DNA from: Candidatus Marinacidobacterales bacterium
Lineage (GTDB): Bacteria > Acidobacteriota > Vicinamibacteria > Marinacidobacterales > DATDRI01
Assembly (NCBI GenBank): GCA_965219415.1
Contig: OZ244742.1
Span: 1,888,001-1,952,000 of the forward strand
Length of the DNA stretch: 64,000 bases
Direction of reading: 5' to 3'
Positions 28,250-50,629 of this stretch are shown piece after piece (within the stretch, counting starts at the first letter, position 1; each line of letters begins with the position of its first letter). The translations under genes were made by a program, and so were the position numbers. The notes beneath the pieces are model-generated. The model was given only the letters and a program-made list of their open reading frames with translations. It ran no database searches and was not told where the DNA came from.

Positions 28250-28291
28250 GGGTTACTGTAGCTCACGCTGGTTTGGAACCAAGTTGGAACC
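28250..28291 (+). repeat. Isolated att-arm copy with TTGGAACC direct repeats
   Basis: GGGTTACTGTAGCTCACGCTGGTTTGGAACCAAGTTGGAACC matches the arms at about 35973-36014 and 38234-38275. Confidence 0.75.
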
Positions 28292-28333
28292 CAACACCAA
28301 CCTTCCTATCGCTGCCATCAATATGCAACACGC

Positions 28334-28362
28334 TTGACATCATGATGTCTACCTACTATCAT
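28334..28362 (+). promoter_or_regulatory. Sigma70-type promoter with overlapping operator palindrome for vapBC
   Basis: TTGACA-17 bp-TATCAT; palindrome GACATCATGATGTC (28336-28349); ATG 6 nt downstream, so probably leaderless. Confidence 0.75.
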
Positions 28363-28368
28363 CAATGC

Positions 28369-28617
28369 ATGAGAACGACTCTCACTCTGGACGATGACGT
28401 TGCCGCCAAGCTCAAGGCGGAAACTCGACGTAGCGGTAGGACTCTCAAGGACGTCGTGAATGAGTATCTCCGCCTGGGGCTCTACGCGAAAAAAACTCAG
28501 CAGCCCCGAAGGCCCTTTCACGTCGAAGCGCGTGACCTAGGGGCACTTCGTCCCGGCCTCAGCTTGGATAACGTTGGCGATCTGTTGGAGCAACTTGAGG
28601 GCCCAGTCCACCGGTGA
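28369..28617 (+). CDS. vapB: VapB-type antitoxin (RHH)
   Basis: MRTTLTLDDDV...LKDVVNE.LR.GL; GTGA overlap with the PIN gene. Confidence 0.85.
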   Translation: MRTTLTLDDDVAAKLKAETRRSGRTLKDVVNEYLRLGLYAKKTQQPRRPFHVEARDLGALRPGLSLDNVGDLLEQLEGPVHR

Positions 28618-29045
28618 TCCTCGTCGACGCCAACATCGTTCTCCACGCCTACCATCCCCATTCGGAGCATCATGAAGCTTGCCGGCTGTGGATCGAGGAA
28701 AACTACTCCGCGCCAGCGCCAATCGGGCTTCCCTGGCTCACCATCTGGGCATTCCTTCGTATTAGTACGAATCCTCGTGCGTTCGAAAAACCGCTCACCA
28801 TGAAAGAGGCGGCAGCGATCGCGTCGTCATGGTTCGATGTGGCCGCCGTTCGAGTGGTGGTGCCGGGTGAACGTTACTGGGAGATCTTGAGGAACCTGCT
28901 ACTCGAGGCCCAGATCTCAGGTCCCCTCGTAACCGATGCCGCTCTAGCGGCCATGGCCATCGAGCAAGGTGCGAGCGTCTGCACAACCGACCGAGATTTT
29001 GCTCGTTTCGCAGAAGTACAGATCGTCGACCCCTCGCGAACGTAG
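28614..29045 (+). CDS. vapC: VapC PIN-domain toxin
   Basis: ILVDANI, DAALAA.A.E, TTDRDFARF. Confidence 0.92.
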   Translation: MILVDANIVLHAYHPHSEHHEACRLWIEENYSAPAPIGLPWLTIWAFLRISTNPRAFEKPLTMKEAAAIASSWFDVAAVRVVVPGERYWEILRNLLLEAQISGPLVTDAALAAMAIEQGASVCTTDRDFARFAEVQIVDPSRT

Positions 29046-29189
29046 GCTAGGTTCTGCTCCGGAATGTCCCTCTTGTTCAGACAACTGGAAAGAGGGCATA
29101 TGGGCCCGTGTTTTGCGATGGTTCAGTGGTAGCTGACTCTCCTGCCACGCTATGCGGCTTGTCCGCAACTAAGCTTGATCTTTATACAT

Positions 29190-30113
29190 ATGAAGCCTTT
29201 GCACATTGAAACACCGTTCTTCGAGTCCCGCGCGCTGACCATCGGCGCAGGCCGGACTGTCTGGCTAAAGCTCGAAGCAATGCAGCCGCCCGGTTCATTC
29301 AAGATTCGTGGGATTGGATTGGCTTGCCAAGAATACGTTCGCCGCGGCGCCGAGCGGTTCATTTCGTCGTCCGGCGGAAATGCGGGTATCGCAGTGGCCT
29401 ACGCTGGGCGCCATCTATCCGTGCCAGTGGTCGTCGTGGTTCCCGAGACCACCACCGACAGAGCCAAGGCACTGATACAGCAAGAGGGCGCCGAAGTGGT
29501 TGTCCATGGCTCTTCCTGGCACGAAGCGAATGCACTGGCATTGTCGATGGTCAAGGAATCTGATGCATTTCTGCATCCGTTCGATGCCCCTCTTATTTGG
29601 CAAGGACATGCCAGCCTGGTTGACGAAGTAGTGCGATCGGGTGTGAAGCCTGATGTCGTCGTTCTCTCGGTAGGAGGCGGCGGGTTGCTAAGCGGCGTCG
29701 TGGAGGGGCTACATCGAAACGGCTGGACCGATGTCCCGGTGATTGCCGTCGAAACGGAAGGAGCCGACTCATTAGCTCAGTCGGTTCGAGCAGGCTACCC
29801 AGTCGAATTGGCCGCCATCACCAGTATTGCCACTTCACTGGGCGCCACGCGAATTTGCGAACAAGCGTTCAGTTGGTCAAAGAAGCATCCTCTTCGCAGC
29901 ATCGTGGTCTCGGATCGGGCCGCTGTATTCGCATGCCAAAGATTCCTTGCCGATCACCGGGTAGTAGTGGAGCCGGCTTGCGGAGCATCTCTCGCGGTCG
30001 TGTATGACGGCGCACCGGAACTTGAAGAATTCAAATCCGTTCTGGTCGTCGTTTGCGGTGGAGTGACCGTAACCGTCGAACAGTTGCAAGAATGGTCGAA
30101 GGTATATGCATAA
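29190..30113 (+). CDS. PLP-dependent serine/threonine dehydratase-like enzyme
   Basis: KLE..QP.GSFKIRG, SSGGNAG, SVGGGGLL, VEPACGA. Confidence 0.9.
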   Translation: MKPLHIETPFFESRALTIGAGRTVWLKLEAMQPPGSFKIRGIGLACQEYVRRGAERFISSSGGNAGIAVAYAGRHLSVPVVVVVPETTTDRAKALIQQEGAEVVVHGSSWHEANALALSMVKESDAFLHPFDAPLIWQGHASLVDEVVRSGVKPDVVVLSVGGGGLLSGVVEGLHRNGWTDVPVIAVETEGADSLAQSVRAGYPVELAAITSIATSLGATRICEQAFSWSKKHPLRSIVVSDRAAVFACQRFLADHRVVVEPACGASLAVVYDGAPELEEFKSVLVVVCGGVTVTVEQLQEWSKVYA

Positions 30114-30188
30114 CCCGTCGCTTTCTGTCGGCGTTTCGATCGCGCCGAGGTCCGCATCCTCGCCTACCAGGCGCTCACCGAGCAGCAC

Positions 30189-31655
30189 ATGATCCGCTGT
30201 CGTCGCTTCGCAGCCGTCATAACAATCCTGGCGCTCGCCGTCAGTTGCACCAGCCAGGACGACCCGCATGCCGGCGTGGAAACCGGGGACGACAACGCCG
30301 TGGTCGATGCCGTGTTCGCATCCTGGGATTTGCCGGGATCGCCGGGTTGCGCGCTCGCCGTGGCGCAAGATGGCGCCCTGGTATACTCGCGCGGCTACGG
30401 TTACGCCAACCTCGACTACGACATTCCCATCACGCCGCAGACGGTGTTCGACGTCGCCTCGGTGACCAAGCAGTTCAACGCCGCCAGCCTCAACATGCTG
30501 GCGTTGGAAGGGAAGCTGTCGCTCGACGACAACGTCCGCAAGTGGCTTCCGGAGCTACCCGAGTACGAGTGGCCGATTACCCTGCGGCACATGCTCTACC
30601 ACACCAGCGGCTTGCGTGACTATCTGAACCTGTTCCCACTCGCCGGGCGCGACGACTACTACCCGATCTCGCACGGCCAGATTCTGGCGATGATGTCGCG
30701 GCAGCGCGCGCTGATCTATCCGCCAGGTGAACAATACCGTTACAGCAACACAGCCTACATGCTGCTGGCGCAGGTTCTCGAGCGCGCCGGAGGCAAATCG
30801 TTGGGCGAGATAACGCAGGAGCGCATCTTCGAGCCGCTGGGGATGGAAGACAGCTCAATGTACGAAAACCTCGAGGAAATCATTCCTCGGCGCGCCACCG
30901 GCTACGATCGCGACGCCGATGGCCGCCTGCGGATCGTGCACAACTACAACTTTGACGTCGCCGGCGACGGGCAACTGTACTCGACCGTGGAGGATCTGCT
31001 GCGCTGGGACAATTACCTGCACGGCGCCGAGAAGCCGGTGACTTATTCGATGATGCTGACCGAGGGGCACCTCAACAAAGGCGATCCGACCGGCTACGCC
31101 CAAGGCATTCGGCTGGATGAGTACCGCGGCCTGCGCACCGTGGGGCACCACGGCAGTTCCTGGGGGTTCCGCACCCAGCTCGTACGGTTCGTAGAGCCCG
31201 GCCTGTCGATCGCCATCTCCTGCAACGTCGACTCCGCCAAACCTGGAAACCTGGCGCAGCAGGTCGCCGACCACTACCTGGCTGACCAGCTCGGGCCCGA
31301 GAGCGGCGACGAGGCACCCGGCGACGACCAGCCCGCCGCAGGCACGGTATCCGAGCCGCCATCATTGACATCCGACCAGCTGGCCGAGTTTTCTGGTGCG
31401 TTCTATTCTGCCGAGCTGGACGCCACCTACCGTTTCGCGGTGGTCGACGGCGGCCTCGTGGTGCGCATCGAGCAGGAGTCGCTGCTCGACGTCGCGCCGG
31501 TAGCCGATGACCGCTTCGAGTTTGGTTTCCACCCTCAAGGGTGGTCGGGACCACAGCCGGTAAGCCTGGAGTTCGATCGCAACCGTACCGGCGCCATTAC
31601 CGGGTTTGGCCTGAGCTCGGGCTCAGAGCGAGGCATCGTATTCGTGAGACGCTAG
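30189..31655 (+). CDS. Serine hydrolase (beta-lactamase/D-aminopeptidase family) lipoprotein
   Basis: Lipobox AVSC, SVTK (SxxK), YSN, GHHG; extra C-terminal domain. Confidence 0.88.
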   Translation: MIRCRRFAAVITILALAVSCTSQDDPHAGVETGDDNAVVDAVFASWDLPGSPGCALAVAQDGALVYSRGYGYANLDYDIPITPQTVFDVASVTKQFNAASLNMLALEGKLSLDDNVRKWLPELPEYEWPITLRHMLYHTSGLRDYLNLFPLAGRDDYYPISHGQILAMMSRQRALIYPPGEQYRYSNTAYMLLAQVLERAGGKSLGEITQERIFEPLGMEDSSMYENLEEIIPRRATGYDRDADGRLRIVHNYNFDVAGDGQLYSTVEDLLRWDNYLHGAEKPVTYSMMLTEGHLNKGDPTGYAQGIRLDEYRGLRTVGHHGSSWGFRTQLVRFVEPGLSIAISCNVDSAKPGNLAQQVADHYLADQLGPESGDEAPGDDQPAAGTVSEPPSLTSDQLAEFSGAFYSAELDATYRFAVVDGGLVVRIEQESLLDVAPVADDRFEFGFHPQGWSGPQPVSLEFDRNRTGAITGFGLSSGSERGIVFVRR

Positions 31656-31781
31656 CGCTGGTTGCGGGATACTAGCTCGTGCCACGCCGCGAACTGTGTG
31701 ATGAACGGCCGCAACCCAAAGCCGACATTTGCTCTGTCATCTCAGAAATGCAAGTCTGACTCTATTTTCTGGAGACGGTCG

Positions 31782-33314
31782 ATGATCAAGAGATCCCTAG
31801 CGATTCTGCCCAGTGTCGTACTCGTGTTGACGGCCTGCGCCTCCGATGCGCCAGAGCCCACTGGCGTGGTTATCGTCAATGCACGGGTAATCGATGGTAG
31901 CGGTGGCCCCTCCCGGGACGTGAACGTGCGCGTCGTGGGGGACCGCATTGCCAACGTTGGGAATTTTGAGGCGTCGGCAGAGGACACCCTTGTCGATGCA
32001 GATGGTTTGGTGTTGGCTCCTGGATTCATTGACAACCACAGTCACCACGACAAAGGGTTGTTCGAGATGCCGGGGGCGCTGGCGGCGGTCAGTCAGGGAA
32101 TCACCACTGTCGTGGCCGGGCAGGATGGAGGTCAGAATTATCCTCTGGCGGAGTTCTTTGCCAGCCTAGAAACAACGCCCGTCGCCATCAATGTCGCTTC
32201 CTATGCCGGTCATGGGACATTACGACGCCGGGCAATGGGGGAGGACTTTCAGCGACATGCGACACCGGAAGAGTTGGCAGAGATGGTGAGTCTGTTGCGT
32301 GCCGAGATGGAGGCCGGCGCATTGGGGCTTTCGACCGGGCTGGAGTACGATCCCGGGTCCTTTTCGGCAACCGAAGAGTTGGTGGAACTCGCCAGAGAGG
32401 CGGCTCTCCATGGAGGGCGCTATATCAGCCATATCCGGAGCGAGGATCAGTATTACTGGGAAGCCATCGATGAAATCATCAACGTCGGTCGTGAAGCCGA
32501 GATACCGGTTCAGGTGAGCCACATAAAACTCGCCATGACCCGTTGGTGGGGGCAGGCCGACCGACTGACAACCAAACTGGATGAAGCCCGGGCATCGGGC
32601 GTCGACATCACCGCAGACATCTACCCTTATCGGGCCTGGAATTCAGGATTCAGCTGGCTGACGACAGTGTTCCCGGATCGCGATCTGGAGCGACGGGATG
32701 GGGCGGAATACATCCTCAGCGATATGCTATCGCCGGAGGGCATCCTGCTCGCCACTTACCGACCGGAGCCCGCCTACGACGGCATGACCATCGCCGAGAT
32801 TGCCGTTATCCGTGGATCCGACCCGGAGACAACGCTGATGGAGTTGTTGAAGGCGGAGATGGCCATGGGTGACAAGGAGTCTGGATCCCAGATGTTAGGT
32901 TTTGCCATGGACGAACCCGATATCGAGTCCATCATGGCCTGGCCACATACCGTAATCGGCAGTGACGGCGAACTCGCCGGTGTTCACCCACGTGGCTTTG
33001 GCGCCTTTACTCGGTTTCTCGGACATTACATCCGTGCGCGCAATGTGATCAGTCTCGAAGAGGGCATTCGGAGAATGACCTCACTCTCCGCCCAACACGT
33101 CGGGATCGCTGAGCGTGGCTCGATCCAGGTGGGTCACTACGCGGATCTGGTCCTGTTCGACCCCGAGAGGGTCAGCGACCGCGCGTCTCCCGAGGCCCCT
33201 CATGTGCCTTCCTTGGGTATCGAAAAGGTCTGGGTCAATGGGCAATTGGTGATTGAGGGCGGCCAGATCACCGGCAACCGACCCGGCAAACCGATTCGGC
33301 GGGCCAGCCCCTGA
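31782..33314 (+). CDS. D-aminoacylase family amidohydrolase lipoprotein
   Basis: Lipobox LTAC, APGFIDNHSH, QGITT, SHIRSE, GSDG, HPRGFG.F.R. Confidence 0.88.
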   Translation: MIKRSLAILPSVVLVLTACASDAPEPTGVVIVNARVIDGSGGPSRDVNVRVVGDRIANVGNFEASAEDTLVDADGLVLAPGFIDNHSHHDKGLFEMPGALAAVSQGITTVVAGQDGGQNYPLAEFFASLETTPVAINVASYAGHGTLRRRAMGEDFQRHATPEELAEMVSLLRAEMEAGALGLSTGLEYDPGSFSATEELVELAREAALHGGRYISHIRSEDQYYWEAIDEIINVGREAEIPVQVSHIKLAMTRWWGQADRLTTKLDEARASGVDITADIYPYRAWNSGFSWLTTVFPDRDLERRDGAEYILSDMLSPEGILLATYRPEPAYDGMTIAEIAVIRGSDPETTLMELLKAEMAMGDKESGSQMLGFAMDEPDIESIMAWPHTVIGSDGELAGVHPRGFGAFTRFLGHYIRARNVISLEEGIRRMTSLSAQHVGIAERGSIQVGHYADLVLFDPERVSDRASPEAPHVPSLGIEKVWVNGQLVIEGGQITGNRPGKPIRRASP

Positions 33315-33355
33315 GTCTGACCGACGCCAAAAAAGGCTTCCGCGAAAGAAACACC

Positions 33356-34278
33356 ATGGAAAAATCCTGGCAGCAACAGCTCGATGCGGACCAGATCGTC
33401 CTGACGACGGGGCCACTGGCACTGAACTTCAACGACGCGGCGTACCGATGGACAAAGTTGCGTGGAGTGGGGCTGCCGTGCTCACTCATCCAGATGTCGT
33501 ACGTGAAACGCACGAGGACTATATCCGCGCTGGGGCGAAGGTTATCATTACAAACACGTTTGGATCGACGCGGCAAATGCTAGAGCCAGCCGGCTATGGA
33601 GACCAGGTCGAGGCGGTCAATCGGGGCGCTGTCAAACTTGCCAGGCAAGCTCGCGATAACGTGGCCCAACAAGCTGTGGCGGTGGCAGGTTCGATTTCAT
33701 CAGAGCCGCCCGGCTTTGATCGAGACGCGTTTTTTTCACCCGAAAAGGAATTAGAGGCCTACCGAGAAGCGGCAGGCCTTCTGGCGGATGCGGGCGTTGA
33801 TTTGATAGCGCTGGAGATGATGGTTGAAACGACTCATGCGTCCCGCGCGTTGCAAGCGGCATTAGAGACAAAACTCCCCGTGTGGTTGGGTGTTGGCTGT
33901 AAGAAAACAGAGGACGGCAAGATCGTGAGCTTTGACCACACCGGCCTGGAGTTGGCCACGGTGCTGGACGCTCTCATCCCAAAGGGACCGACCGTGGTTA
34001 ACATCATGCACAGTGAAATCGGGGCCATTCCTCAGGCCATTGAATTGGTTCGGCAACGGTGGTCGGGACCTATCGGCGTGTACCCCGAAACAGGATACTT
34101 TACCAAACCGAATTGGAACTTTGTAGACGTCATACCGCCAGCTGATTTGGTAACCGAAGCGCTCGGCTGGGTTGCGGCGGGCGTACGTTTGCTCGGCGGA
34201 TGCTGCGGCACAAGCCCCGACCACATCAAGGCTCTCCAGGCGGCGATGCCGGAGCTAGAAGCTGCTCGAAGCGCTTAG
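33356..34278 (+). pseudogene. Homocysteine S-methyltransferase family protein (frameshift near 33405)
   Basis: MEKSW..QIVL then DGATGTEL in another frame; HEDYIRAGA, TNTF, GGCCGT. Confidence 0.8.
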
Positions 34279-34353
34279 CCCGTGGCGATATCGGAACACG
34301 AGAATTCCGGCGACAAGAACAATTAGGGGCAAAACCTGGCCGACACTGGCAGC

Positions 34354-35685
34354 GTGAAAAGCGAAGGGCTGGTGCGTGTCATCGGTACCTGGGCACTGGG
34401 ATTGAGTGTTGTCAACTTGGTCGTGGGTGCCGGCATTTTTGCGTTGCCGGGGCGAGTCGCGGCGGAACTGGGTTCGGCGGCCATAGTTGCCTACCTGGTC
34501 TGCTCGGTGGTGCTTTCCCTGGTCTTCCTTTGCTTCGCCGAAGTCGGCAGCCGCGTAAGTCGCAGCGGCGGCGCTTATGCCTACATCGAAGAGGCCTTTG
34601 GTCCGTTCGTGGGATTTGTCGCCTCGATCCTGTTTTGGTTCGGCTACATCGCAATGGCGGACGCTGGTCTCACGGTCATCATGGTTGAATCGATAGCCAC
34701 AGTGGTTCCCATTCTAGGTGAGTCCATCCCTCGTGCAATCTTCATCATCGCCCTGCTGGCGTTCCTCACAGCAGTGAACGTCATTGGCGTTAAGGCCGGT
34801 GTCAGGCTATATGTCTTCAATACGTGGGCCAAGCTAGTGCCGCTGCTGCTGTTGCTGGTCGCCGGGCTGCTCTTAATCAATGTTGACAATCTCGCTGTTC
34901 CCGAGTAGCCCTCGGCCAAAGCCATCGGCGCAACTACGATCCTCCTGTTTTTTGCTTTCACCGGAGCCGAGTGCGCGTTGAACGCCAGCGGCGAAATCAA
35001 AAACTCTGCGAAAACCGTTCCAATGGGACTTATGTTTGGCATCGGCGCGCTGCTGGTACTCTACATCGGACTGCAAACGGTTTCGCAAGGCGTGCTCGGG
35101 CCGGAACTCGCCAACAACACCGAGGCGCCGCTCGTCGCTGTCGCAACCGAAGTGTTCGGCGACTGGGGTGGCAAGATGCTGCTGGTGGGCATGGTTATTT
35201 CAATCTATGGCGCGTTGAGCGGCGACATGCTGGGCGGACCAAGGATTGTTTTTGCCTCGTCGTTGGACAATAACCTGCCGAAATTTCTGTCCAAGGTGCA
35301 TCCGCAGTACAAGACACCTTACGTCGCCATCATTTTCTTCGCAGTGATCGTGTGCGCGTTTGCGCTAACCGGCACGTTCAAGTACCTGGTTGTGTTCGCA
35401 ACCGGCTCGCTGCTGCTTATTGATCTCGGTGTCAGCCTCGCCGTGCTGCGCTTGCGTCAGCGCGACGGCCTGCCCAAAGTCGGCGAGTTCAGGCTTCCGT
35501 TCGGCCCGCTTATTCCACTGTTGAGCTGCGGTATCGTCGGTTGGCTGCTCTTGCAGATGCCGCTCGAGGAAGCCATCAGTGTCGCGGCGCTCGTTAGCGC
35601 CTCTGTCACGGTTTACGTGATCCGCGCCTTGTTACGTCGCTCGTCGGGCAAATCTAAGCCGGCGGTAGCACCGCTGGAACCGTAG
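34354..35685 (+). pseudogene. APC amino-acid permease with in-frame TAG at 34906-34908
   Basis: VGAGIF, GGAYAY, AKL.PL; the reading frame continues after the stop with FAFTGAE and HP.YKTP. Confidence 0.85.
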
Positions 35686-35844
35686 CAGCGATTCGAGTCA
35701 GAACTCATGCTCTTCTGCTTCCTGAGAATCGAGTGCCCTTCGATTGGAGTCGGAGGCCCACCGGGTATGCCCCACCCCCCTTGATGCCCCAGTGTTACCC
35801 GAACCCCGCCGCCCGAGGCCCGCTCCCCCGTAACCCATTGCCCT

Positions 35845-36014
35845 TGGAGCCGGCGAGAGGATTTGAACCTCCGACCTGCTGATTACGAATTTGCGCCCCT
35901 ACGAACCAGGAAGACCCACCGTAACCTAAGAGCACCCGAACAAAGGAAGAAGGCGGGCGGATAGTTGCTCGTGGGTTACCGTAATTCACCCTGGTTTGGA
36001 ACCAACTTGGAGCC
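35845..36014 (-). repeat. att site: tRNA-Thr 3'-half copy (35845-35890) plus arm
   Basis: 46 bp identical to 50555-50600, followed by about 125 bp nearly identical to 38153-38275. Confidence 0.9.
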
Positions 36015-36389
36015 ACTCACGCAGTCCAGGCGAAGGGTCGGATCGTGATGCACTTCACTCACAAAGCTGACTGGCGTCGGACCCGCTCACGGCTAATCTC
36101 GGGCACCTCCCTCAGAGCGGCCAACTCTTCACCCGTAGCCAGCCGGCCCGCCCCGATCCAAACCATTCCATGCGCTGCCGGAGGCCGCTACAGGATCGCT
36201 GAGGGCCTCCTGCTCTTTGACTTTACAGCCTGTGCAGGGCTATTTTCACGCTCAAAGGGACCCAGCCGCGTCCTTCTTTTAGACCGGTCGGTTTCGCGAG
36301 CGGCCAGGGTATCGGGCGCGGGTGACGGTAGCCTTTGTCTGTGCTCATCGCTCTCCTGGGTTTGTACTGGTCCGTAGAGAGAGCTTTGT

Positions 36390-37715
36390 ATGCCTAGGGC
36401 TTTGGACATCACGAGAATCGCCACGGTCTTTTTAGCGTTGGCTCTCGTGGCCGGCGAAGCATGGGCCCAGGCCGGCCCCACCACTTTTCAATTCAGCTTC
36501 TCCAACCCCGGCGCGCGCAGTCTGGGTCTGGGTGGTGCCTTCGTCCCGCTCGCGGACGACGCCACCGCGGCCTTCGCCAATCCCGCTGGTTTGCAGCAGC
36601 TGGTTCGAGCGGAGATTTCCGTCAAGGGAAGACTCTGGGGCTACACCACACCTTTTACCGTAGGAGGGAGACTATCTGGTCTTCCATCCGGCATCGGTCT
36701 CGATCAGACGGCGGGCTTGCGCGTCTCCGAATCTTCGGACACGCTTTCGGACCTGTCCTACCTCTCGTTCGTTTATCCCTCCGAGAAGTGGTCGCTTGCC
36801 GTCTACCGCCACCAGTGGGCGAGCTTCGAAGACTCCTCGAACACCCAGGGTTTCTTCGGCGACTCTCCCGACATCAGTACTCGCCCGCGCCGCCGCTGTG
36901 GCCCCGACACCTACAGGGTCCGCGACTTCACCGCTTTCAATGAGCTCGAGATAGTGAACTACGGTGTGTCCGGTGCCTATCAAATGTCGGAGAAACTGAG
37001 CATTGGAGGTGGCCTCTCCTTGTACGACGGAACGTTCGACAACGGAGGCGAGTTCTTTGCCCTCGTCGACGCGAACCTCCCCCAAGGCTGCTTCGGCCCG
37101 AGTATCTCCGCGCCCGAGGCGCGGATCCTCACGGCCAGCACCACCATCGACGACACGGCCTGGGGGTTCAATGCCGGAGCGCTCTTCGAGCTTTCGAGCC
37201 ATTGGAAGCTTGGCGGCGTCTACCGTCGGGGCCCCAATTTCCAGTTCACCGAGGAGCGAAGCGGCCCGATACTGGATCTACCCGAAGGCACGATCCTTGT
37301 CAGCGAGACGGGCAAGATCCGCATGCCGGACGTATTCGCCATCGGAATCGCCTTCAAGTCGGAGAACGGAGCCGTGACCGTCGGCTTCGAGTGGGATCGG
37401 GTCATCTACTTCAACGTCCCCGATAATCTGGAGCTAAACGACGGCAACGAGCTTCATTTGGGAGGTGAGTACGCTTTCATCGAGTGGGCGCCCGCCGTGG
37501 CTCTACGATTCGGGCTCTGGCTCGACCCGGACCACCGCATCCTAGCCCTCGAGGGCGAGGCGCTCGACAAAGCCATTTTCCGCGGCGGGGAGGACGAGCT
37601 TCACGTCGCCTTTGGTTTCGGTTTGGCCTTCCAAAGTTTTCAGGTCGACTTGGGGGTCGATCTCTCGAAGCTCGTCGACACGGCTTCCGTCTCCGCCATC
37701 ATCTTCAGTTTCTAG
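36390..37715 (+). CDS. OmpP1/FadL-like outer-membrane beta-barrel
   Basis: Signal peptide, FSFSNPGARSLGLGGAF..LADDATAAFANPAGL, C-terminal Phe. Confidence 0.75.
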   Translation: MPRALDITRIATVFLALALVAGEAWAQAGPTTFQFSFSNPGARSLGLGGAFVPLADDATAAFANPAGLQQLVRAEISVKGRLWGYTTPFTVGGRLSGLPSGIGLDQTAGLRVSESSDTLSDLSYLSFVYPSEKWSLAVYRHQWASFEDSSNTQGFFGDSPDISTRPRRRCGPDTYRVRDFTAFNELEIVNYGVSGAYQMSEKLSIGGGLSLYDGTFDNGGEFFALVDANLPQGCFGPSISAPEARILTASTTIDDTAWGFNAGALFELSSHWKLGGVYRRGPNFQFTEERSGPILDLPEGTILVSETGKIRMPDVFAIGIAFKSENGAVTVGFEWDRVIYFNVPDNLELNDGNELHLGGEYAFIEWAPAVALRFGLWLDPDHRILALEGEALDKAIFRGGEDELHVAFGFGLAFQSFQVDLGVDLSKLVDTASVSAIIFSF

Positions 37716-38387: not shown

Positions 38388-38393
38388 ACTAGG

Positions 38394-42034: not shown

Positions 42035-43327
42035 ATGGGAAGTCTGCTACGTTCGGTCAAGAAACGCAAGAAGTCGCGTCGTTTGGGTGAGGTCGAGATG
42101 GTGAGGCACGAGGATTACGGGGAACTCGTGCTGGACGCCAAGGTAGAGATGATCCGTTGGTTGGTCCCCCTTGGTCTAATGCACGTTCACGAGTTGCTCG
42201 ACGACGAAGTGAAGGCGTTGGCGGGAGAGCGATACTCTCGCAAGGACGAGCTGGAGCGCGGTCGCCGTCCCGGAAGCAACCCGGGCACGGTAGGGCTTGG
42301 CGGCCAGCGGGTACCGATCCGTGTGCCACGGGTTCGGAGCATCGAGGGAGGAGAGATTCCGCTTCGCTGCTACGAGGCGGTGAGCCACGGCGGTGAGGTG
42401 AATGATCTTCTGCTGAAACGAGTTCTCTACGGAATCTCTTGTCGCAACTACGAGGCGGCAGCGGAAGCGATTCCGGGCGCCATCGGGCTGTCGAGCTCAA
42501 CGGTGTCCCGAGGGTTCGTGCAAGCGAGCGCTGCGAAGCTGCGGGAGATGCAGGAACGGGATCTGACCGGCGAGGATGTGGTGGCGCTGTTTCTGGATGG
42601 GAAGACATTCGCCGAGGCAACGATGGTCGTGGCTCTGGGCATCACGCTTTGCGGGGAAAAACGCTTCTTGGGCTTCGTGGAGACGGACACGGAGAACGCG
42701 CAGGTGTTGACGCCGTTCCTGCGTTCACTGCTCGAGCGGGGACTCGATATCTCCCAGGGTCTGCTGGTGATCATCGACGGCGGCAAGGGTCTCCAAGCGG
42801 CAGTCAAGAAGGCATTCCGTAAGCGGGCCCTGATACAACGCTGCCAGTGGCACAAACGTGAAAACGTAGTGAGCTACCTGTCCAAGGGCGAGCAGGCGTC
42901 ATGGCGCAAGCGGCTCCAGTGGGCCTACAACAGGCCGGAGTACGAAGAGGCCCTCACTGCGCTCGAGCAACTCCACGGTGAGTTAGAAGAGCGGAACCAA
43001 TCTGCAGCTGGCAGCCTGGAGGAAGGCCTCGAGGAGACGCTGACGTTGCATCGACTCGGCGTGCACGCGGTGCTGGGCCGTTCGTTCAAGACGACGAACT
43101 GCCTTGAGTCCGTCAATGCTCTCGTCGAGGAACGCTGCGCGAAGGTCGACCACTGGAAGAACTCGAGCCAACGCCAGCGCTGGTTGGCAACGGCGCTCGT
43201 AGACATCGAACCGCGCTTGAGGAAGGTGGTGGGCTACCGCCATCTTCCCAAGCTTCGCGAAGCTCTCAAGCGGGAACTGAAGATCGAGGCGAAGACATCA
43301 ACCGTATCGAAGAAGAAGGTCGCTTAA
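42035..43327 (+). CDS. IS256 (Mutator) family transposase
   Basis: LFLDG, IIDGGKG, QRCQWHK, TTNCLES; RBS AAGGAG before ATG 42035. Confidence 0.92.
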   Translation: MGSLLRSVKKRKKSRRLGEVEMVRHEDYGELVLDAKVEMIRWLVPLGLMHVHELLDDEVKALAGERYSRKDELERGRRPGSNPGTVGLGGQRVPIRVPRVRSIEGGEIPLRCYEAVSHGGEVNDLLLKRVLYGISCRNYEAAAEAIPGAIGLSSSTVSRGFVQASAAKLREMQERDLTGEDVVALFLDGKTFAEATMVVALGITLCGEKRFLGFVETDTENAQVLTPFLRSLLERGLDISQGLLVIIDGGKGLQAAVKKAFRKRALIQRCQWHKRENVVSYLSKGEQASWRKRLQWAYNRPEYEEALTALEQLHGELEERNQSAAGSLEEGLEETLTLHRLGVHAVLGRSFKTTNCLESVNALVEERCAKVDHWKNSSQRQRWLATALVDIEPRLRKVVGYRHLPKLREALKRELKIEAKTSTVSKKKVA

Positions 43328-43632
43328 ACGTGAGCCGTGGAGAGTTTCAACTAAGAATGGGCTTGACTCCGCGAGACAGTCCAGACCCTAGCAGCAAAGC
43401 ATAGGCACCCTTATTGGAGCGAACCGCAAAGGCCACTGAGACCAGCGGATCGATTTCCCAGCCTGGCACGCTCTCTCTCCCGGTCGGTAGCAGCAATTCT
43501 AGCCCAAGAGAGGGCCGACGACACTCGTCTTCTACCTGCTAATTGCGTCTCAGGTGACGGCGGAAAAGTGCTTCATCGAAGCGAAGTTGGAGGGACGGTG
43601 ACGCCGTGGTGACCCGCATGGAGGCGGCCTTC

Positions 43633-44195
43633 CCAAAAGGCGACCTCGTCGGCAACGCAGGCGACGACGGAATAGCCGCGTACGCTCTTGAAGTTCGACG
43701 TATGGATCTCGATGTCGATCCCGTTCGTGAGGCTGATGGTCTCCTTGAGACGATCCGCGACCATGGAGGAGAGCAACGGGCTGCCGTCGAGGAGCCCGGT
43801 CACGTAGCGGAACAGTACGCGCGCCTGCCTCCGGTCCGCAGCGAGCAGCATCACCACCCCGCGCTCACCGGGAGCCAGAGCATTGCGGTACTCCCGGAAG
43901 CAAGCGAGGAAGACGGCGATCAGGGCTGCGATCCGCGACTTGCCACCGCGCCGACCGACAACGACCCATGCCTCTCTCGCAGGCTCCATGGGAGGCTTGG
44001 TCCTTCCCGTGGCTCCCGGTACAGCGCGACATCCTCGGTATCCATTCCGAGAGCAAAGAACGCCCGAAGAAACGCTGTCCAGCTTCTCCAGGTATCGAGG
44101 TCTGAGAAGGTTGATCGGAAGAGCCTAGGGTCTCCCAAGGCCGTAACGATATCGATGCCGGTTGTGGCGGCCCGTTTTCGCCCCTTGGCTCTCAC
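43633..44195 (-). pseudogene. Terminase large subunit, N-terminal ATPase half
   Basis: Walker A GRRGGKS, AADRRQA, Walker B VVACVADEVAFW; frameshift near 44000. Confidence 0.85.
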
Positions 44196-44553
44196 TTCGC
44201 GGCCTTGCCGTAGGTGTCGGCGACGTAGGTTCCGAGCGATGGTACCGGCTTCGCTCTACGCTCCAGGCCAAGGAGCGAGAGCCGGCGCGTCAGGCCATCG
44301 GCTACCTTCTGGCGCTGGAGCACCACCGGGGGAAGGCTCTTCGTCCGCTTATTGACGAGGCTCGGTTGTGCCAGCTCCCACTCGGCGATCTGTACATGTC
44401 GAGCGTCACTGCCTCCACCATGGCCAGCTGCTGCTGGCTGAGGCTATCAGGGCCCCCGAGGTCCTGTATCAAGCCATCCCGCCATGTCAGCACTCGCCTA
44501 CCGACCCTGGTTCTCGCGTCTATCGACGTGATACCGGCCTTGCGAACCTTCCG

Positions 44554-46013
44554 GGGGATGTCCCGGCCGCTGTTGAATTTGGTCGGGTAGCGGCGGCACC
44601 TGTGAATACTCTTAGGCAGCAAACTCATCGCTGTCAAGAGATTTCTGTTTGCTTCTAAGCGCGTGAACGAGAGCGCCCATATGGCGATAGCCTTTGATAC
44701 GCCGGAACTTTTTCTGCGCGGTGACGACGCCAAGAGCGGTCCATCGGCGAACCATGGAAGGACTCTTCCAACGCTTGAGGTTTCTCGATACTCTGCGAAT
44801 GGTTCCGTTGAGATTCTCAATGGCGTTCGTCGTGGCAAGAGACTGGCGAAGTAAGGCGGGCAGCGCGAGCTTCACGACCGTGAGTGTCTCTTCCATCCCT
44901 TCACGAAGGCTTCCGGCAGCTTCGTCGTAGCCGTTTCGCTCGAGCCACGACACCAATGCCTGAAGTCGCTTGCGCGCCTTGTCGGCACTCTTGCACTTGT
45001 AGGCTTCCTTCATCGTCTGGAGTACGTAGGCGTGACGAGACTTGGGAAGGTACGAGCGAAGATTCCGGAGTTTATGGATCTGGCACCTTTGGATGACCGC
45101 GAGGTCCCCCAAAACGTCGACGAGTGCCTTGCGGATGCCTTTGCCTCCGTCCACTACGCAGAGAATCGACTCATCGACGCGCAAGCCCCGCTCGAGAAGG
45201 TCCTGCAACATCGCGGTGCACACCCGAGAGTTCTCCGTCGAGCCCAGCCATATACCCAGGGGCACCTTCGTTCCATCTATTGTGATACCTAGAGTTACGA
45301 CGACGGTCTGTCCGGCCACCTCAAGGCCATCCAGCATCAGTGCCGCAAGCTCGAACTCCTCTAGCCGCCGAGACAGGTATTCCTCGAGCTTCTTAGTCGT
45401 CTGGCTCACGAGGTGACGGCTGGCGGCACTCTTACTCGTGCCACGAGACTTCAACTTGGCCGCGGGTTTGTTCAGACTCGATTCGTAATTTCGGGTCGAT
45501 ACCCCCACCAAGATCTGATTCAACACTCGCTCTGGAAGCGGGTCTTCTTCGCGGAAGGCTTCGAAGTGTGGAAGCGACGCCTCCTCGCCCGACTTCGAGC
45601 GAACTCGAGGTCGCGACACTTGGATGCGACGACCACCGAAGCTCAGCTCTCCGTTCGTGCTCCCCCAGTGGTTATGAGTTCGCTCCTTCTCGTGCTTGCC
45701 CTTGAGCCCCGCGATCTCCTCGGCGTCCTCTCTGAGCAGTAGGTGCAGAGCTGTCAGTCCTTGCTCGTACACCCATTCCGTCAGTTCCGCCTTCGTGGCC
45801 GCGATCCCAGCTATCATCGGTAGCAGTATCTGACCGACTTGGCCAACTACCTTGCCCGTAGGCGAGTGCGTTTGCTTTCTTACTGGCTTCTTTGATTTCC
45901 TAGGCATTGGTGGCTCCTTGTCCCCCTCTGGAGACGGTTTATTGGCAGACCTATTCTTAGGCCGGCCAAGGAGCCGCCGCTACCCCAAATTCAACATCCG
46001 GCGGGACATCCCC
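44554..46013 (-). mobile_element. IS256 family element
   Basis: About 40-bp IRs GGGGATGTCCCG..TGTTGAATTTGG..GTAGCGGCGGC; 8-bp target duplication ACCTTCCG (44546-44553, 46014-46021). Confidence 0.93.
44612..45907 (-). CDS. IS256 family transposase
   Basis: LMLDG, VVDGGKG, QRCQIHK, TTNAIEN. Confidence 0.93.
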   Translation of the reverse strand: MPRKSKKPVRKQTHSPTGKVVGQVGQILLPMIAGIAATKAELTEWVYEQGLTALHLLLREDAEEIAGLKGKHEKERTHNHWGSTNGELSFGGRRIQVSRPRVRSKSGEEASLPHFEAFREEDPLPERVLNQILVGVSTRNYESSLNKPAAKLKSRGTSKSAASRHLVSQTTKKLEEYLSRRLEEFELAALMLDGLEVAGQTVVVTLGITIDGTKVPLGIWLGSTENSRVCTAMLQDLLERGLRVDESILCVVDGGKGIRKALVDVLGDLAVIQRCQIHKLRNLRSYLPKSRHAYVLQTMKEAYKCKSADKARKRLQALVSWLERNGYDEAAGSLREGMEETLTVVKLALPALLRQSLATTNAIENLNGTIRRVSRNLKRWKSPSMVRRWTALGVVTAQKKFRRIKGYRHMGALVHALRSKQKSLDSDEFAA

Positions 46014-46078
46014 ACCTTCCGCACCACGGGCGTAAGTCTGTGTTCGTGTAGGATCGTCGACGTTTCTTTAGGTGTTTT

Positions 46079-46978
46079 GCCGCCGAGGGCGCAGCGAACC
46101 CCGACACCGAGGTTGTCAATGCGATCCGACCAGGGATGGCGTCGGTACCGAGTTCGCTGCTCCTTGCTATCAGCTCGCCGTATGCAAGGCGCGGGGCTCT
46201 GTGGAACGCTTACGACCAACACTTCGGGAGAGACGGTGATCCGGTGCTCGTTTGGCAGGCGAGCACGGGCTCCATGAACCCAACGATCGCCAGTGATGTT
46301 ATTGAGAGGGCCCTCGTGGAAGACGAGAGCGCAGCGCGGGCGGAGTATTTTGCTGAGTTCAGGCGTGATATCGAAAGTTTCGTCTCCAGAGAAGCCGTGG
46401 AGCACTGCGTGATCGCTGGACGTCGCGAACTTCCGCCCGCATCCTCTATACGCTACGTGGCCTTCTGCGATCCCAGTGGCGGTTCCGCCGACTCGATGAC
46501 CTTGGCGATCGCACACCTTGACGGTCAGAGTGGCAAGGTGATCCTCGACGCCGTGCGTGAGAGAAAACCACCCTTCTCTCCGGAGGATGTTGTCCGTGAA
46601 TTCACGGAGACACTCAAGAGTTACCGCGTCTCGAGTGTAACCGGCGATCGTTACGGCGGGGAGTGGCCCGCCGAGCGATTCCGCGAGCACCGTATCGTAT
46701 ACGAACCATCACCGGTCCCGAAGTCGGACCTGTACCGGGAACTGCTACCCCTGCTGAACGGCGGTAGGTGCGAGCTTCCCAACCTTCGCCGGCTACTTTC
46801 CCAGCTCCTCTCGCTGGAACGGAGGACCAGCCGGGCGGGCAAGGACTCGATCGACCACCCTCCCCGTTGCCACGACGACCTCGCGAACGCGGTGGCCGGT
46901 GTTTTCCACGTCGCTGGGAGCGCGAGCCAAAGTTGTGGTGTCCTCCTCCCGACCGGTGAGCTGATCGCGTTTTCGTAG
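46079..46978 (+). pseudogene. Terminase large subunit, C-terminal half (opposite strand to the N-half)
   Basis: AANPDTEVVNAIRPGM, ISSP, AEY.AEF, nuclease motifs FCDPSGG, GDRYG, HDDLANA. Confidence 0.85.
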
Positions 46979-47081
46979 CGGCCAACGTGCGCACTTGCCA
47001 TTCTCGTTTAGCCCAATGGAAGGGCCTCACGTAGAGGCCGTTATTGGGGCGGGCACCCCACTCCGCATCGAAACGAACCAG

Positions 47082-48029
47082 TTACCGCTTAAGGTCAGCG
47101 TTCACAAGAACGCCAAGCTCGGACTGGCGCTCGAAGTCGTCTACGAGAACACGCAAGCGGCCAGATTCTTGCTTAGTGATGCCGTTCTCATCGCCGTTGT
47201 GGTATCGACCGGTCATCACATGATTCTCCGTTGCTGAGTGATACCATCCAGCATCGGACTCCCTAACCTCGGGTCCTACGATACGGTCGAAAACCTCGGC
47301 CAGCCGACCGTTGACCAAGACTGTTGCGTACAGGTATTGGGTAGGTCCGTTCTCGTCACCCTTGTGCGGAATCCAGTCAACACGCCGTCGCCAGGAGCCA
47401 CAACCCACCCATGTCGTGATTCACGAACTGCTTCGGTCCACGTTCCCGGTCGCTCGATGTCGATTGTCAAATTGGACTGTGACACCGTCGTGAGAGGGGC
47501 ACATTTGTATCGCGTGTTGCCTCCTTCGTCCCCTCGGCGGAACCGGCCAACGAGAACCGTGTTCTCGGGGCAAACCGCCTCATGGTCGGAGGCCCTGAAA
47601 GACCCCAAGGTTATCGCTTGATCAGGGTATCGCTTGATCAGGGTTCGGTAGCAGTTCCTCCGAAGAAACCGGACCTTTGTGTCCCCTTTCTACTTCCCAC
47701 AATGGGGATTCCAAATTGATGAAAATCACGCTCGTTTGATGTTTCGTCCAGCCGTTCTCGTCGCCTTTGTGGTATCGACCGGTGATTACTCTGCGCGGCG
47801 CGCTCTGATACCATCCGGATTCAGACTCTCTTACTCTCGGCCCCCTGAAATGATTGATAACAGTGGCTGGCTGGCCGTCAACGAACACCGTCGAATGGCG
47901 GTACCGCGTTTTTCCATTCTCGTCACCTCTATGCTGACGCCCGGTAAACACTTTGTTGGTAGGTGCAAGTGCCCAGCGGCTCGTCGATTCCCTTTTCCAG
48001 CGTGTCCACACATGGTTGCCGACAGTCAC
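47082..48029 (-). pseudogene. GRxHxGDENG-repeat protein (five repeats, two frameshifts)
   Basis: GRQHRGDENG, GRYHKGDENG, GRFRRGDEGG, HKGDENG and GRYHNGDENG across three ORFs; 16-bp duplication at 47612-47643. Confidence 0.75.
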
Positions 48030-48051
48030 GGAGAGATATATGGGTGTTCAG

Positions 48052-48292
48052 ATGGCAGAAAAAAAGAAACGTCGGCAGTTCACGAAGGAATTTCGAGCAG
48101 AGGCAGTGCAGCTGGTTCGGGAGAGCGGCAAGGCAGTGAGCGTGGTAGCCCGGGATATCGATGTGACGGAGACGTCGCTTTATGCCTGGGTGAGGCAGGA
48201 CAGGATCGACCGTGGTGAAGGCGGTCCCTGAACCCTGACGAGCGAGGAACTCGAAGAACTGCGTGGCCTCCGAAAGGAAGTTCGGGAGCTTT
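48052..48292 (+). pseudogene. IS3 OrfA remnant
   Basis: MAEKKKRRQFTKEFRAEAVQLV...VARD.D...SLY.WV.Q with a premature stop and no OrfB. Confidence 0.75.
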
Positions 48293-48329
48293 CGAACTTA
48301 GACTCTTGGAAGCAAACCGGTTTGCATAG

Positions 48330-48779
48330 TCAACTTGTCCACCAAACCGGAGCAAGCTCAACCGGTGTATTCCACGTCCCATGTTTTTCCATGTACTCGG
48401 CTAGCCATGCACGGCTTTCAATATTCCCTTGCCTTCTTCCGCCGCCTCTCGTACTCCAGTTGTGCCATTTATCGAAGTCTTCAACGCAGTCGTCCACGGA
48501 GAGTTCCACCCCGTCCATGGCTTCTGGCCCGGGTACCTTGCGGAGCGGCCAAACTTCTTCCTTGAATTCAAGTGAATCCCATAAGAAGGAGTACGTATAG
48601 TCAGGAGAGACATCGAGGATCGGGCCGCCCAACGCTACATGAGCTAGGAGCGGCGTTGAGTAGAGCCACTCGACGAGTAGCTCATCGGGAAAATTCGGAC
48701 GCTTTTTGCGCGCCTCCTCTAAAAACGCACCCAACTGCATAGTTGTCAAACCGTGGCAAACGCAGTGGAAGTCGTCCAC
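48330..48779 (-). CDS. Hypothetical protein (possibly truncated)
   Basis: 149-aa ORF directly downstream of the Shedu-like gene on the same strand; no recognised motif. Confidence 0.45.
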   Translation of the reverse strand: MDDFHCVCHGLTTMQLGAFLEEARKKRPNFPDELLVEWLYSTPLLAHVALGGPILDVSPDYTYSFLWDSLEFKEEVWPLRKVPGPEAMDGVELSVDDCVEDFDKWHNWSTRGGGRRQGNIESRAWLAEYMEKHGTWNTPVELAPVWWTS

Positions 48780-48838
48780 AAGATGGAAAACCCCGTCGGG
48801 AGCTGCGGAATTCTAATCGTCGAATCGGGCGCAGACGG

Positions 48839-49664
48839 TTATCTAGTAACCTCGAACTTCTGCTTAAGGAACTGTCGCTGCTCCGGTGGGATTCTTTCGT
48901 TAAGATCCACCGCCATGCCCTTGTCCCGAATAAAGCCGTAGTCCTCAAGACATAGTGACGATATCTCCACACACTCGGGGACTCGCCTGGCAACATAACC
49001 GTCCTCATCGATACCGACGCATAGGTACTTCCGCTGATCATGCATTGGGCTTAGACGGTCAAACGTCATGATTTCTGTATTCTCTGGCCGGATCTGGCTT
49101 CTCTTGAGGTTCAACTCCGAAGTTCGATTCGCGTCCGCGCGGCGTCCGTAAATTAGAAGATACGACGGGGTCAACGCCCGAAAATCCAATCGGTCCGGGA
49201 AACGATAGAAACGTACGAACGCCTGCTGGTTCTCGGGCTTTGAGAACCATACTTTCCATTCAGCAATCTGATTGAGCGCTTGCGCCAGCTCCGCTGTCTG
49301 ATTGCCATCGCCGGTCCACCATGCCTTGGATGGTCTTTCAATTTCTATGAAGAGTGGCGTTACGGTCGCACTGTCCGTGGCGAGCCACAAGAAATCGGGT
49401 ACCCGCGACGTGAATCCTCCTAAGCGTGGCTGGGAAATCAACGCAGCCGGAAAGGGGGTGATGACCACTAGATCCGAGTCTGCCGTAGCCGAGAGTATGC
49501 GCTCCGGGTACCATGCAGGGATGGCACTCAAGGAACTCCTGAGTTCGGGCTTCTTCGGGTTCTGACTCAAGCAAGCTCTTCCACTCTTCGAGGACTCTCT
49601 CCTGATAGTCAAGCCATTCGACTGGACTAGGCCCCCGGTCGATGGTGAACCTACGTACCTTCAT
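48839..49664 (-). pseudogene. Shedu (SduA/DUF4263)-like nuclease, one frameshift
   Basis: QEFLE.HP, PDF, IEIERP, AL.QI.EW, LIYGR, I.TFD.L; frameshift in the G5 run near 49455. Confidence 0.75.
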
Positions 49665-50099
49665 ATCCGTGCTACCGCAGGGGGGAGGACGACTTGCTCG
49701 CCGAGGTGGGGTGAACCGCGCCGCCCGAATGGTTCCCACAAAATCCATCGCGCTCTGCGTCACGTTGACAGTGGTAGGTCTGTCCGCCGACCGGCTCCAC
49801 GTACCGGCACTGATCTCGTTCAGTCGGCACCGGCTCGCGGACCTTCCCATCGGCAAGCCGCATCCTTCCAATGAACCCTACCAACCTTGAGCGTGAGGCT
49901 GTCCCCTTCTCCCCGGACTCGGAGCCAGGCCGCGGAATTCCGCGAGCATCCAGAACTACCGACACCAGTTCTGCCATGTCTTCGTCGTCAAGTCCCTCGA
50001 ATGGTTCAAATGTATCCACAAGCATAAGGACAAGGAGGTCGCGGTCGACACGGGCCCAGTTTCGCAACTGGACCCGTTCTGCAACGGGCTCGTAACGGG

Positions 50100-50420
50100 C
50101 AAGGGTGCTGGCGGTATGCGTGGTGTTGTTCTTTTCTCTTGTAGCCGCGGGTCTGTTTGTCGCGGAGCAGGCGGTTCACGTCGCCACGCGTTACCTCGCG
50201 TAGAAGCTTCCGGCCGAGAGCGGGGAGCACATGATCTTCCAGGTTCCGCTCGTACGATCGGATGGTCTTCGCTTCGAGTTCGTGACGCACAGCCTCAAGC
50301 CATTCGCGCGCATAGTCCTCAAGCGTGACATCGGGGTCGCCATCAATCCCGGAGAGCTTCTCGACCAACTCGGTGCGCTCTTTCAGGATCTCCCCTAGCC
50401 TCGCGCGGGCTTGCTCCTCG
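50100..50420 (-). pseudogene. Integrase N-terminal (SAM-like) fragment
   Basis: TLEDYA.EWL...T..SY...L..H.LP.LG...L.EVT..DV pattern, adjacent to the att/tRNA. Confidence 0.75.
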
Positions 50421-50554
50421 GAGCTGCTCTAACGGCACGGGTACGCGGACCTCGTTGACGGCCTCACCGGGGCAGAACCCGCCACGGAAAACGTCACCAC
50501 AACGTCACCAGAACTGTCGCCCGCAAAAGTTTCTCTACAAGTCGTTGAAGATGT

Positions 50555-50629
50555 TGGAGCCGGCGAGAGGATTTGAACCTCCGACCTGCTGATTACGAAT
50601 CAGCTGCTCTACCACTGAGCTACACCGGC
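50555..50629 (-). tRNA. tRNA-Thr (CGT)
   Basis: GCCGGTGTAGCTCAGTGGTAGAGCAGCTGATTCGTAATCAGCAGGTCGGAGGTTCAAATCCTCTCGCCGGCTCCA folds as a cloverleaf, anticodon CGT, CCA encoded. Confidence 0.97.

Follow-up and report, generated by a model that had tools for sequence, protein, structure and literature searches.

The window analysed here is a 64,000-nucleotide stretch of a Candidatus Marinacidobacterales genome (assembly GCA_965219415.1, contig OZ244742.1, positions 1,888,001 to 1,952,000; G000:C1:1888001-1952000 in our numbering). It contains one tRNA gene, tRNA-Thr(CGT), and beside it a row of displaced copies of the tRNA 3' half alternating with small groups of genes. We consider it probable that this locus was built by tandem accretion and decay of tyrosine-integrase islands at tRNA-Thr, in the manner of cis-mobilisable elements (CIMEs), with occasional mobilisation of passengers in cis. 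The locus probably holds the remnants of six elements with three types of integrase arm, and in relatives the same tRNA gene is a hotspot for several integrase specificities. That an element integrates in the anticodon loop and displaces the 3' half is established (PMC4383910), and accretion, decay to CIMEs and composite transfer are described in streptococci (PMC5704250, PMC7563491). G000 is an 8.05-Mb genome in 3 contigs with a listed contamination of 8.45%, and positions are those of the window unless stated otherwise.

Displaced tRNA halves and arms

Three copies of the tRNA 3' half lie to the left of the intact gene, in the same orientation as the gene, an arrangement expected of an island array. 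Every copy ends at the anticodon loop. The first-pass annotation, a model's reading of the letters alone, had placed these copies, here called cores, at 35845, 38107 and 39016, and all three were recovered there. P stands for the arm to the right of a core (an element's tRNA-distal end) and P' for the arm at the end closest to the tRNA. The features are as follows.

50555-50629, minus strand: tRNA-Thr(CGT), the integration target and the only tRNA gene in the window
35845-35890, minus strand: core 1, displaced tRNA-Thr 3' half, 46-47 nucleotides (nt), 100% identity
38107-38152, minus strand: core 2, tRNA 3' half, 46 nt, 93% identity, with a compensated T-stem variant that G002 also has in its intact tRNA
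39016-39060, minus strand: core 3, 45 nt, 100% identity
35891-36015, plus strand: TGGAACC arm 1, 125 bp, with GAACC/GACCC/TAACC/GCACC motifs phased at ~10 bp and a terminal repeat pair
38153-38277, plus strand: TGGAACC arm 2, repeats at 38257 and 38268
28250-28292, plus strand: distal ~45 bp of a TGGAACC arm, repeats at 28273 and 28284
35767-35791, plus strand: putative arm of a third type, a ATGCCCCA pair (repeats at 35767 and 35784) left of core 1, at the tRNA-proximal end of the amino-acid unit
39175-39196, plus strand: CGTCACC pair (39178 and 39189), distal arm of the 11.5-kb element
50490-50510, plus strand: CGTCACC pair (50492 and 50503), tRNA-proximal arm of the 11.5-kb element

The pair TGGAACCA-N1-4-TGGA[AG]CC occurs four times in the 8.05-Mb genome, where 0.14 occurrences are expected, and all four are at this locus (28273, 35996, 38037 and 38257). 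The 125-bp arms 1 and 2 are 92% identical to each other, and an orphan copy of arm 1 in G008 is 82% identical. A third copy of the arm had been reported at 28250, where we found its last ~45 bp only, which a deletion has joined to a second integrase tail (28197-28250). The pair at 38037-38056 lies within an integrase tail to the left of core 2 and is therefore a tRNA-proximal arm. The TGGAACC arm also forms an imperfect inverted repeat (fold z of -0.9 to -2.7 against mononucleotide shuffles); this repeat and the ~10-bp-phased motifs (35891-36015, 38153-38277) are possibly excisionase sites. A GTGCCCC pair sits before the start of a different integrase in G020.

Matching arms at both ends were found only in a unit with a FadL-like gene and in the 11.5-kb unit, whose separate CGTCACC motif was present at each end. 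The four modules of the first-pass annotation were upheld in these two cases; of the other two, the 7.6-kb module is a fusion of at least two units and the hicAB module keeps one arm. Together with the older trace at 28197-28250 this gives probably six remnants.

Support from contigs of sequencing runs

Read evidence consisted of contigs only, from runs X1, X2, X6, X7, X8 and X9 (6 of the 22 listed). Contigs of X1 (study P1) and X2 (study P2) returned the pieces between the repeats with 0-2 differences; one run may be the source sample. In X1, contigs reach into the cores from the unique flanks expected of the array (32500-35873, 36789-38145, 38179-39045, 39026-40700 and 48332-50583). Since the inter-repeat pieces are found in contigs of two studies, the content of the array is real. 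It is hardly credible that the repeats are an artefact of collapsed or chimeric strains in a metagenome-assembled genome. The listed contamination of G000 would speak for it, as would the presence of more than one strain in the runs and the fact that no contig examined crosses a complete core with both array flanks; against it stand the X1 and X2 matches, the differences among the repeat copies themselves, and the same architecture in relatives.

Three apparent signals in the contigs were set aside. A joint from 38275 to 32500 in X1 was rejected as a circle, being the 28250 arm copy of one 9444-nt contig placed at the wrong arm. A joint from 35891 to 38104 in X6 (side 29, depth 43 against a local ~10, likeness 90) was unreliable and excluded from counts. 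The FadL unit is uncovered in X8 and was not counted as lost there, the backbone being likewise uncovered at depth 2-3.

Integrases and the likely parent element

The array contains no intact tyrosine integrase, only remnants, as the first-pass annotation had stated. The family that targets tRNA-Thr is present here in this broken form, and G007 and G028 carry it beside the tRNA. In G007 it is a frame open over at least 249 aa and cut by the contig end (P0001). A protein search gave 11 matches at E <=1e-60 among 908 candidates, including the full-length P0002 (369 aa) and P0003 (416 aa). Both of these have the sequence FGTKSGT, which is the arm repeat translated, and P0003 reads through the antisense tRNA-Thr. 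The attachment (att) site overlaps the 3' end of the integrase gene, and tails and P' arms are therefore kept or lost together. Integrase remnants are broken at differing points in G000 (two), G001, G002 and G028. A common internal-deletion design upstream of both tails was rejected, its local score of 27 being reached by 14 of 300 shuffles.

The suggestion that an intact integrase might be found next to TGGAACC arms elsewhere in G000 came to nothing in a search of the genome. None of its 13 PF00589 matches is intact and of the TGGAACC type, P0002 and P0003 as queries gave fragments or ~30% identity, and PF13356 and PF03135 had no match. Intact or nearly intact genes occur in relatives. G020 has a full-length integrase with one frameshift, downstream of an excisionase-like HTH_17 gene and a primase-polymerase gene, and G008 has an intact 443-aa relative at tRNA-Thr, with a second core 52 kb away. 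The gene content in G020 (integrase, HTH_17, primase-polymerase) suggests that the parent of the TGGAACC remnants was likely a satellite- or tycheposon-like element. No relaxase or type IV secretion family was found among 53 scanned open reading frames (48 in the G008 island, 5 on the G020 contig). P0001 had no relative in viral contigs and, in genome contigs, only in G007 and G001; P0003 had no match at 1e-70 in 401 genomes of the phylum, a search with no positive control.

The same tRNA in relatives

Relatives are here the genomes of the order in Vicinamibacteria, in families f1, f2 and f3; G000, G001 and G002 form one genus. The exact 17-nt core pattern matches 51 of the 55 genomes. In f3 one copy is present in 27 of 28 genomes and none has more, and in f1 and f2 together 12 of 27 genomes, G000 included, have 2-6 copies; these counts are undercounts in fragmented assemblies. 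Twenty regions around extra copies held 21 matches (5 tRNA genes and 16 fragments), and across relatives ~10 arm motifs, some read by eye, flank the cores. Many of the fragments are distant from the tRNA or inverted. When 14 queries were run on 2.5 kb at each of 14 tRNA-Thr genes, an intact integrase was found at one, an open frame cut by a contig end at another and remnants at three, leaving nine with none.

G001 and G002 have other cargo between the same flanks, and cargo differs in all three genomes of the genus. G001 carries a 3.1-kb AbiE unit with matching arms at both ends. The order from vapBC to the pyridoxal phosphate (PLP) enzyme is identical in G000 and G002. The first-pass annotation had proposed a comparison of relatives for gain, loss or reordering of modules; differences in cargo were seen and reordering was not.

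Some further sites were noted. Core remnants with short palindromic inserts resembling repetitive extragenic palindromes are at L001:11359 (G001) and L003:7735 (G002). Orphan cores and arms distant from the tRNA are at L005:15798 and L029 (G001), L023-L027 (G026) and L196 (G008), and two orphan cores of G001 have a common 352-bp junction, 94% identical. Among the matches listed in a TGGAACC pattern scan of metagenome contigs (79 loci of 121 stretches), L132 showed a Thr-like core whose arm was shortened, and one locus had a weak integrase match. Other tRNA genes of G000 also have displaced fragments, namely tRNA-Arg(CCT) (two, of the 5' type), tRNA-Met (three) and tRNA-Leu(TAA) (one local, two orphan), and tRNA-Lys(CTT) has an integrase tail; the regions are C1:174646-185691, C2:116579-138077, C3:2037072-2039062 and C3:425456-426300.

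Small pieces shared across genera and families

Several pieces of the array are more alike between genomes than the backbone is. The hicAB toxin-antitoxin (TA) pair with its spacer and core (38339-39060) is 81% identical in G016 and G026 (f2), with lpxB-hflX backbone DNA at 67-72%, and its 35-nt spacer is alignable (17/35 and 20/35). A different arm follows hicAB, the 35 nt and the core in each of G000, G016 and G026. For the P arm with vapBC, also a TA pair, identity is 92% in G003, against 70% for the backbone, and 91% in G002, against 85%. A cupin gene with core matches at 98.3% over 634 bp in G002 and G026, which belong to different families. At four-fold sites the PLP enzyme differs from that of G002 at 6 of 178, compared with 30 of 93 and 49 of 176 in flanking genes; vapC differs from that of G003 at 8 of 74, compared with 44 of 74 in the comparison gene. 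Given this above-backbone identity across genera and families, small pieces lacking an integrase (hicAB with core, vapBC with arm, cupin with core) probably travelled, and on these comparisons they probably moved between related species as passengers.

The two TA units are of one design, consisting of an arm, the TA pair, 29-35 nt and a core. Some shared units have one edge exactly at the core, and the other edge of each shared unit is ragged through deletions and insertion sequences (IS). The hicAB and cupin units stop precisely at the anticodon loop, and the arms that come after them vary between genomes, so each was once at a live att site. No Thr core adjoined the hicAB homologues in G038 or those in 10 genomes from outside the order.

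The units and their genes

The genes and remnants of the window are listed from left to right.

26532-28196, no strand: stretch missing from G001 at this place; similarity to G001 ends at 26531, where G001 has a core remnant; left end undefined
26747-28057, minus strand: gene of the M20 hydantoinase/carbamoylase family, by family scan
28197-28250, plus strand: short TGGAACC-type integrase tail, core lost; 81% DNA identity to 37943-37996 and 57% over 35 positions to P0002 315-349
28369-28617 (vapB) and 28614-29045 (vapC), plus strand: vapBC; vapC has a PIN domain and matches TIGR00028 over cut-off
29175-35685, plus strand: amino-acid cargo (PLP dehydratase, beta-lactamase-fold peptidase, amidohydrolase, homocysteine S-methyltransferase, amino-acid permease)
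36390-37715, plus strand: FadL/TodX-like outer-membrane barrel gene (PF03349, E 5e-13)
37904-38092, plus strand: C-terminal ~63 codons of a tyrosine integrase, ending in FGTKSGT; 83% to P0002 302-364, residues 1-301 absent; PF00589 under cut-off
38394-38597 (hicA) and 38594-38980 (hicB), plus strand: hicAB (PF07927, PF15919, phrog_353, phrog_8245), 35 nt before core 3
39307-40740, minus strand: SIR2-domain defence candidate (PADLOC PDC-S65), broken by an in-frame stop and the IS pile
40666-43370, no strand: IS pile, IS3-type and IS256/Mutator-type; joint from 40665 to 43371 in single contigs of X2 and X8
43573-43989, minus strand: terminase large subunit, piece 1 (phrog_9, phrog_2)
~46080-46978, plus strand: putative piece 2 of the terminase large subunit, with no family match
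48839-49612, minus strand: Shedu (SduA) nuclease gene (PF14082; PDLC00398, E 1e-63)
50105-50422, minus strand: N-terminal integrase remnant of the 11.5-kb element (PF14659, PF22022), 40-47% to the N-termini of P0003 and P0002, pointing away from the tRNA

The stretch at 26532-28196 is probably the cargo of the oldest remnant, and the integrase tail at 28197-28250, fused to the partial arm, is the trace of an older unit. The 7.6-kb unit that follows (28250-35890) has a TGGAACC arm on the left, a ATGCCCCA pair on the right and has lost its left core. In G002, 29 nt separate vapBC from a core remnant that follows it, and the distance from vapBC to the PLP gene is ~1.7 kb. Because its end motifs do not match, and because of this spacing in G002, we regard the 7.6-kb unit as a fusion of at least two units. 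Its vapB gave no Pfam match at 1e-6, and the G002 homologue gave a ribbon-helix-helix match; the amino-acid permease has an in-frame stop near 34908, and 29131-31197 is 96.6% identical in G002.

The FadL unit (35845-38152, 2.26 kb) consists of a P arm, the FadL-like gene and the last 63 integrase codons, which contain the P' pair; it was found as a unit in none of the order's 54 other genomes. At G000 C1:33893-34390 there is a 98% identical copy of the FadL-like gene's first 500 bp. In single low-depth contigs of X7 and X8 one base is absent at 38101, where the integrase tail shifts frame before core 2. The hicAB unit (38107-39060) comprises a P arm, hicAB, a 35-nt spacer and core 3; both cores are kept, and left of core 3 there is no P' arm.

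The 11.5-kb unit (39016-50600), with CGTCACC pairs at both ends, is the least decayed and lies next to the tRNA. Family scans gave no primase or capsid match in it. Its terminase pieces are split by the orientation of 43629-46079, which contains an IS256 (44554-46013), and in one contig of X8 (depth 2.9) the IS elements are missing from the unit and 43629-46079 runs the other way. Position 43629 is exactly where contigs of X2 and X7 start, and the segment ends have no visible inverted repeat. The unit also contains, at 47082-48029 on the minus strand, a broken frame with four [H/N/K/R]GDENG repeats and no Pfam, PHROG, PADLOC or NCBIfam match, and, at 48028-48291, a 264-bp element like a miniature inverted-repeat transposable element, of which G000 has 6 further copies at 98-99% identity. 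Far to the left, at 1937-2251 on the plus strand, another integrase C-terminal remnant with a GGTAGCAA repeat pair overlaps the end of a gene on the opposite strand, which we take to resemble nqrF; synteny with G001 begins at 2307.

A model for the array and its alternatives

Under tandem accretion, an element would cross over in the anticodon loop, bring a new 3' half and displace the old one, the established mechanism; the copies in the window end at the loop and carry element-linked T-stem variants. The next element would enter the regenerated tRNA. Each core is a hybrid junction: to its left lies the older element, to its right the arm of the newer one, and an order of successive insertions may be read from this. 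Integrase tails of varying length remain, and deletions and IS insertions that stopped before the tRNA could have stripped the rest. A later intact element might then excise together with remnants, from the tRNA end as far as an older distal arm, as the cross-family sharing suggests; in a new host the same element might excise alone, dropping the remnants beside the tRNA. TA pairs may persist because losing them would be costly. Since no cognate integrase was found in G000, the array probably stays frozen as long as no such element comes in.

A number of observations weigh against this account. That the repeat pairs are integrase arms we infer from their position and repetition. hicAB divergence is 0.37-0.48, and the sole control, a flanking gene 39% identical in protein, is weak. 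The hicAB core of G026 bears the host's own T-stem variant, which would need conversion if the crossover is fixed in the anticodon loop. In G006 higBA stands beside the tRNA with no upstream arm, and the arm-TA-core design is therefore not universal among TA remnants. No VirB4-family gene was found in G000. Contigs terminate within the 45-nt cores and can prove neither unit order across cores nor excision; no excision products or core-to-core joints were observed in them, a test made powerless by these breaks. Many shared pieces are far from the tRNA and beside IS (G003, G016, G026), the vapBC of G003 being 2.28 Mb away and immediately followed by an IS. Between genera and families, IS elements share 94-99% identity, and in X9 a vapC junction coincides with the stop codon and not with a core (one contig, depth 4.3).

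As shared pieces are distant from the tRNA and beside IS, IS-driven or other transfer could account for the sharing. Accretion would then have built the array, the att sites would by now be irrelevant, and cores would accompany the moved pieces by chance of position, dead scars that would also fit the orphan cores, some of them inverted, and the short inserts in cores of G001 and G002. We hold this to be unlikely. The hicAB and cupin units end exactly at the loop with different arms after them in different genomes, and the two distal arms of the window are still 92% identical.

The first-pass annotation had gone further and proposed a cassette-like hotspot, functionally like an integron, in which small att-bounded units could leave, re-enter and change order at the tRNA through integrases supplied in trans. 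A hotspot with several integrase specificities and small units lacking an integrase does exist, and matching arms bound the FadL (2.26 kb), 11.5-kb and G001 AbiE (3.1 kb) units; the common design of the two TA units and the cargo differences within the genus point the same way. The shuffling in trans was not supported by the analysis, and a platform of this kind is distinctly improbable. No cognate integrase is among the 13 PF00589 matches of G000, two of the four proposed units lack matching arms at both ends, and ~10 arm types take the place of one site type. No dedicated integrase-promoter platform was seen at the locus, the vapBC/PLP order is kept with G002, ragged ends and pseudogenes run throughout, and other tRNAs of G000 have the same decayed stacks.

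Our preferred reading, accretion and decay with passengers moved in cis, can be extended to the whole order, and this extension we regard as doubtful. tRNA-Thr would be a dock for ~10 integrase types and for ~1-kb TA passengers (distal arm, TA pair, 29-35 nt, tRNA half) whose distal arm suffices for pick-up by any element of the right type; dropped in a new family and kept by addiction, they would form a cross-family cassette pool without an integron integrase. If one-armed TA units are indeed picked up and dropped, this would be a route for TA and defence genes to gather at tRNA hotspots and cross families. The intact P0003 and the mapped arms are substrates for testing pick-up and drop-off.

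Comparison with known systems

Pavlovic 2004 and Bellanger 2011 reportedly deal with streptococcal CIMEs and with accretion and mobilisation. Among literature titles there was no paper on this locus or order, and the taxon name returned 0 papers, in a search whose coverage left out most subscription journals. Streptococcal CIMEs resemble the present array in being decayed, integrase-less tandem units of 1-13 kb at a tRNA or gene end with chimeric internal att sites (PMC5704250, PMC7563491), and in those arrays too the farthest units are the most decayed and the least decayed lie next to the target (PMC7563491). Recombination and transfer genes are lost across our array, as in a CIME. Att sites at both ends are recognisable by sequence in the FadL and 11.5-kb units; hicAB has both cores and one arm, and the 7.6-kb unit has lost its left core. 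In contrast to streptococcal CIMEs, the parents here look satellite-like (primase-polymerase, terminase) and not conjugative, several units miss one arm, and three arm types occur in one array and ~10 in the order. Cis-mobilisation between distantly related elements is considered likely rare (PMC7563491).

The tDNA islands of Islander share the displaced 3' tRNA fragment, the anticodon-centred crossover and the tandem arrays. That set comprises 3919 islands, with 125 tandems of at least two and 4 of at least three, and its members need their own integrase, whereas every member of our array has lost it (PMC4383910). Dehalococcoides ssrA islands also show many direct repeats of the target 3' end, and 15 islands without integration modules were proposed to be cis-mobilisable; they differ in having a serine recombinase, a tmRNA target, a 20-bp repeat and reductive-dehalogenase cargo (PMC3146451). 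Tycheposons and elements like phage-inducible chromosomal islands have integrase, excisionase and primase modules, partial-tRNA separators and fragmented integrases in islands (bioRxiv 10.1101/2020.12.28.424599). The phylum here is different, and the 11.5-kb unit carries defence cargo besides a large terminase subunit.

A row of small gene units between repeats with no adjacent recombinase bears a superficial likeness to CALINs, attC-site clusters with no integron integrase. An integron needs intI, attI, Pc and attC (PMC4889954); the sites here are tRNA halves and arm repeats, not attC, and the units carry integrase debris. No intI, attI or Pc was seen adjoining the locus. The attC boxes have the consensus RYYYAAC/GTTRRRY, and none was seen by eye at the locus, where no attC covariance model was run. 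A 232-aa frame, apparently without a start, lies 1.19 Mb from the locus (G000 C1:736881-737426); from its extra motif, read by eye, we take it to be IntI-like, the only such frame seen and unrelated to the array.

The array is thus best read not as an integron but as a product of a known way of building genomic islands, and it is a clear example of a decayed tandem array from an uncultured Acidobacteriota lineage. Because nine of the 14 tRNA-Thr genes have no integrase match within 2.5 kb, island finders that require an integrase would miss most of the traffic here. What stands out beside the known systems is the number of integrase types at one tRNA within the order, and the recurring ~1-kb TA units, apparently across family boundaries.

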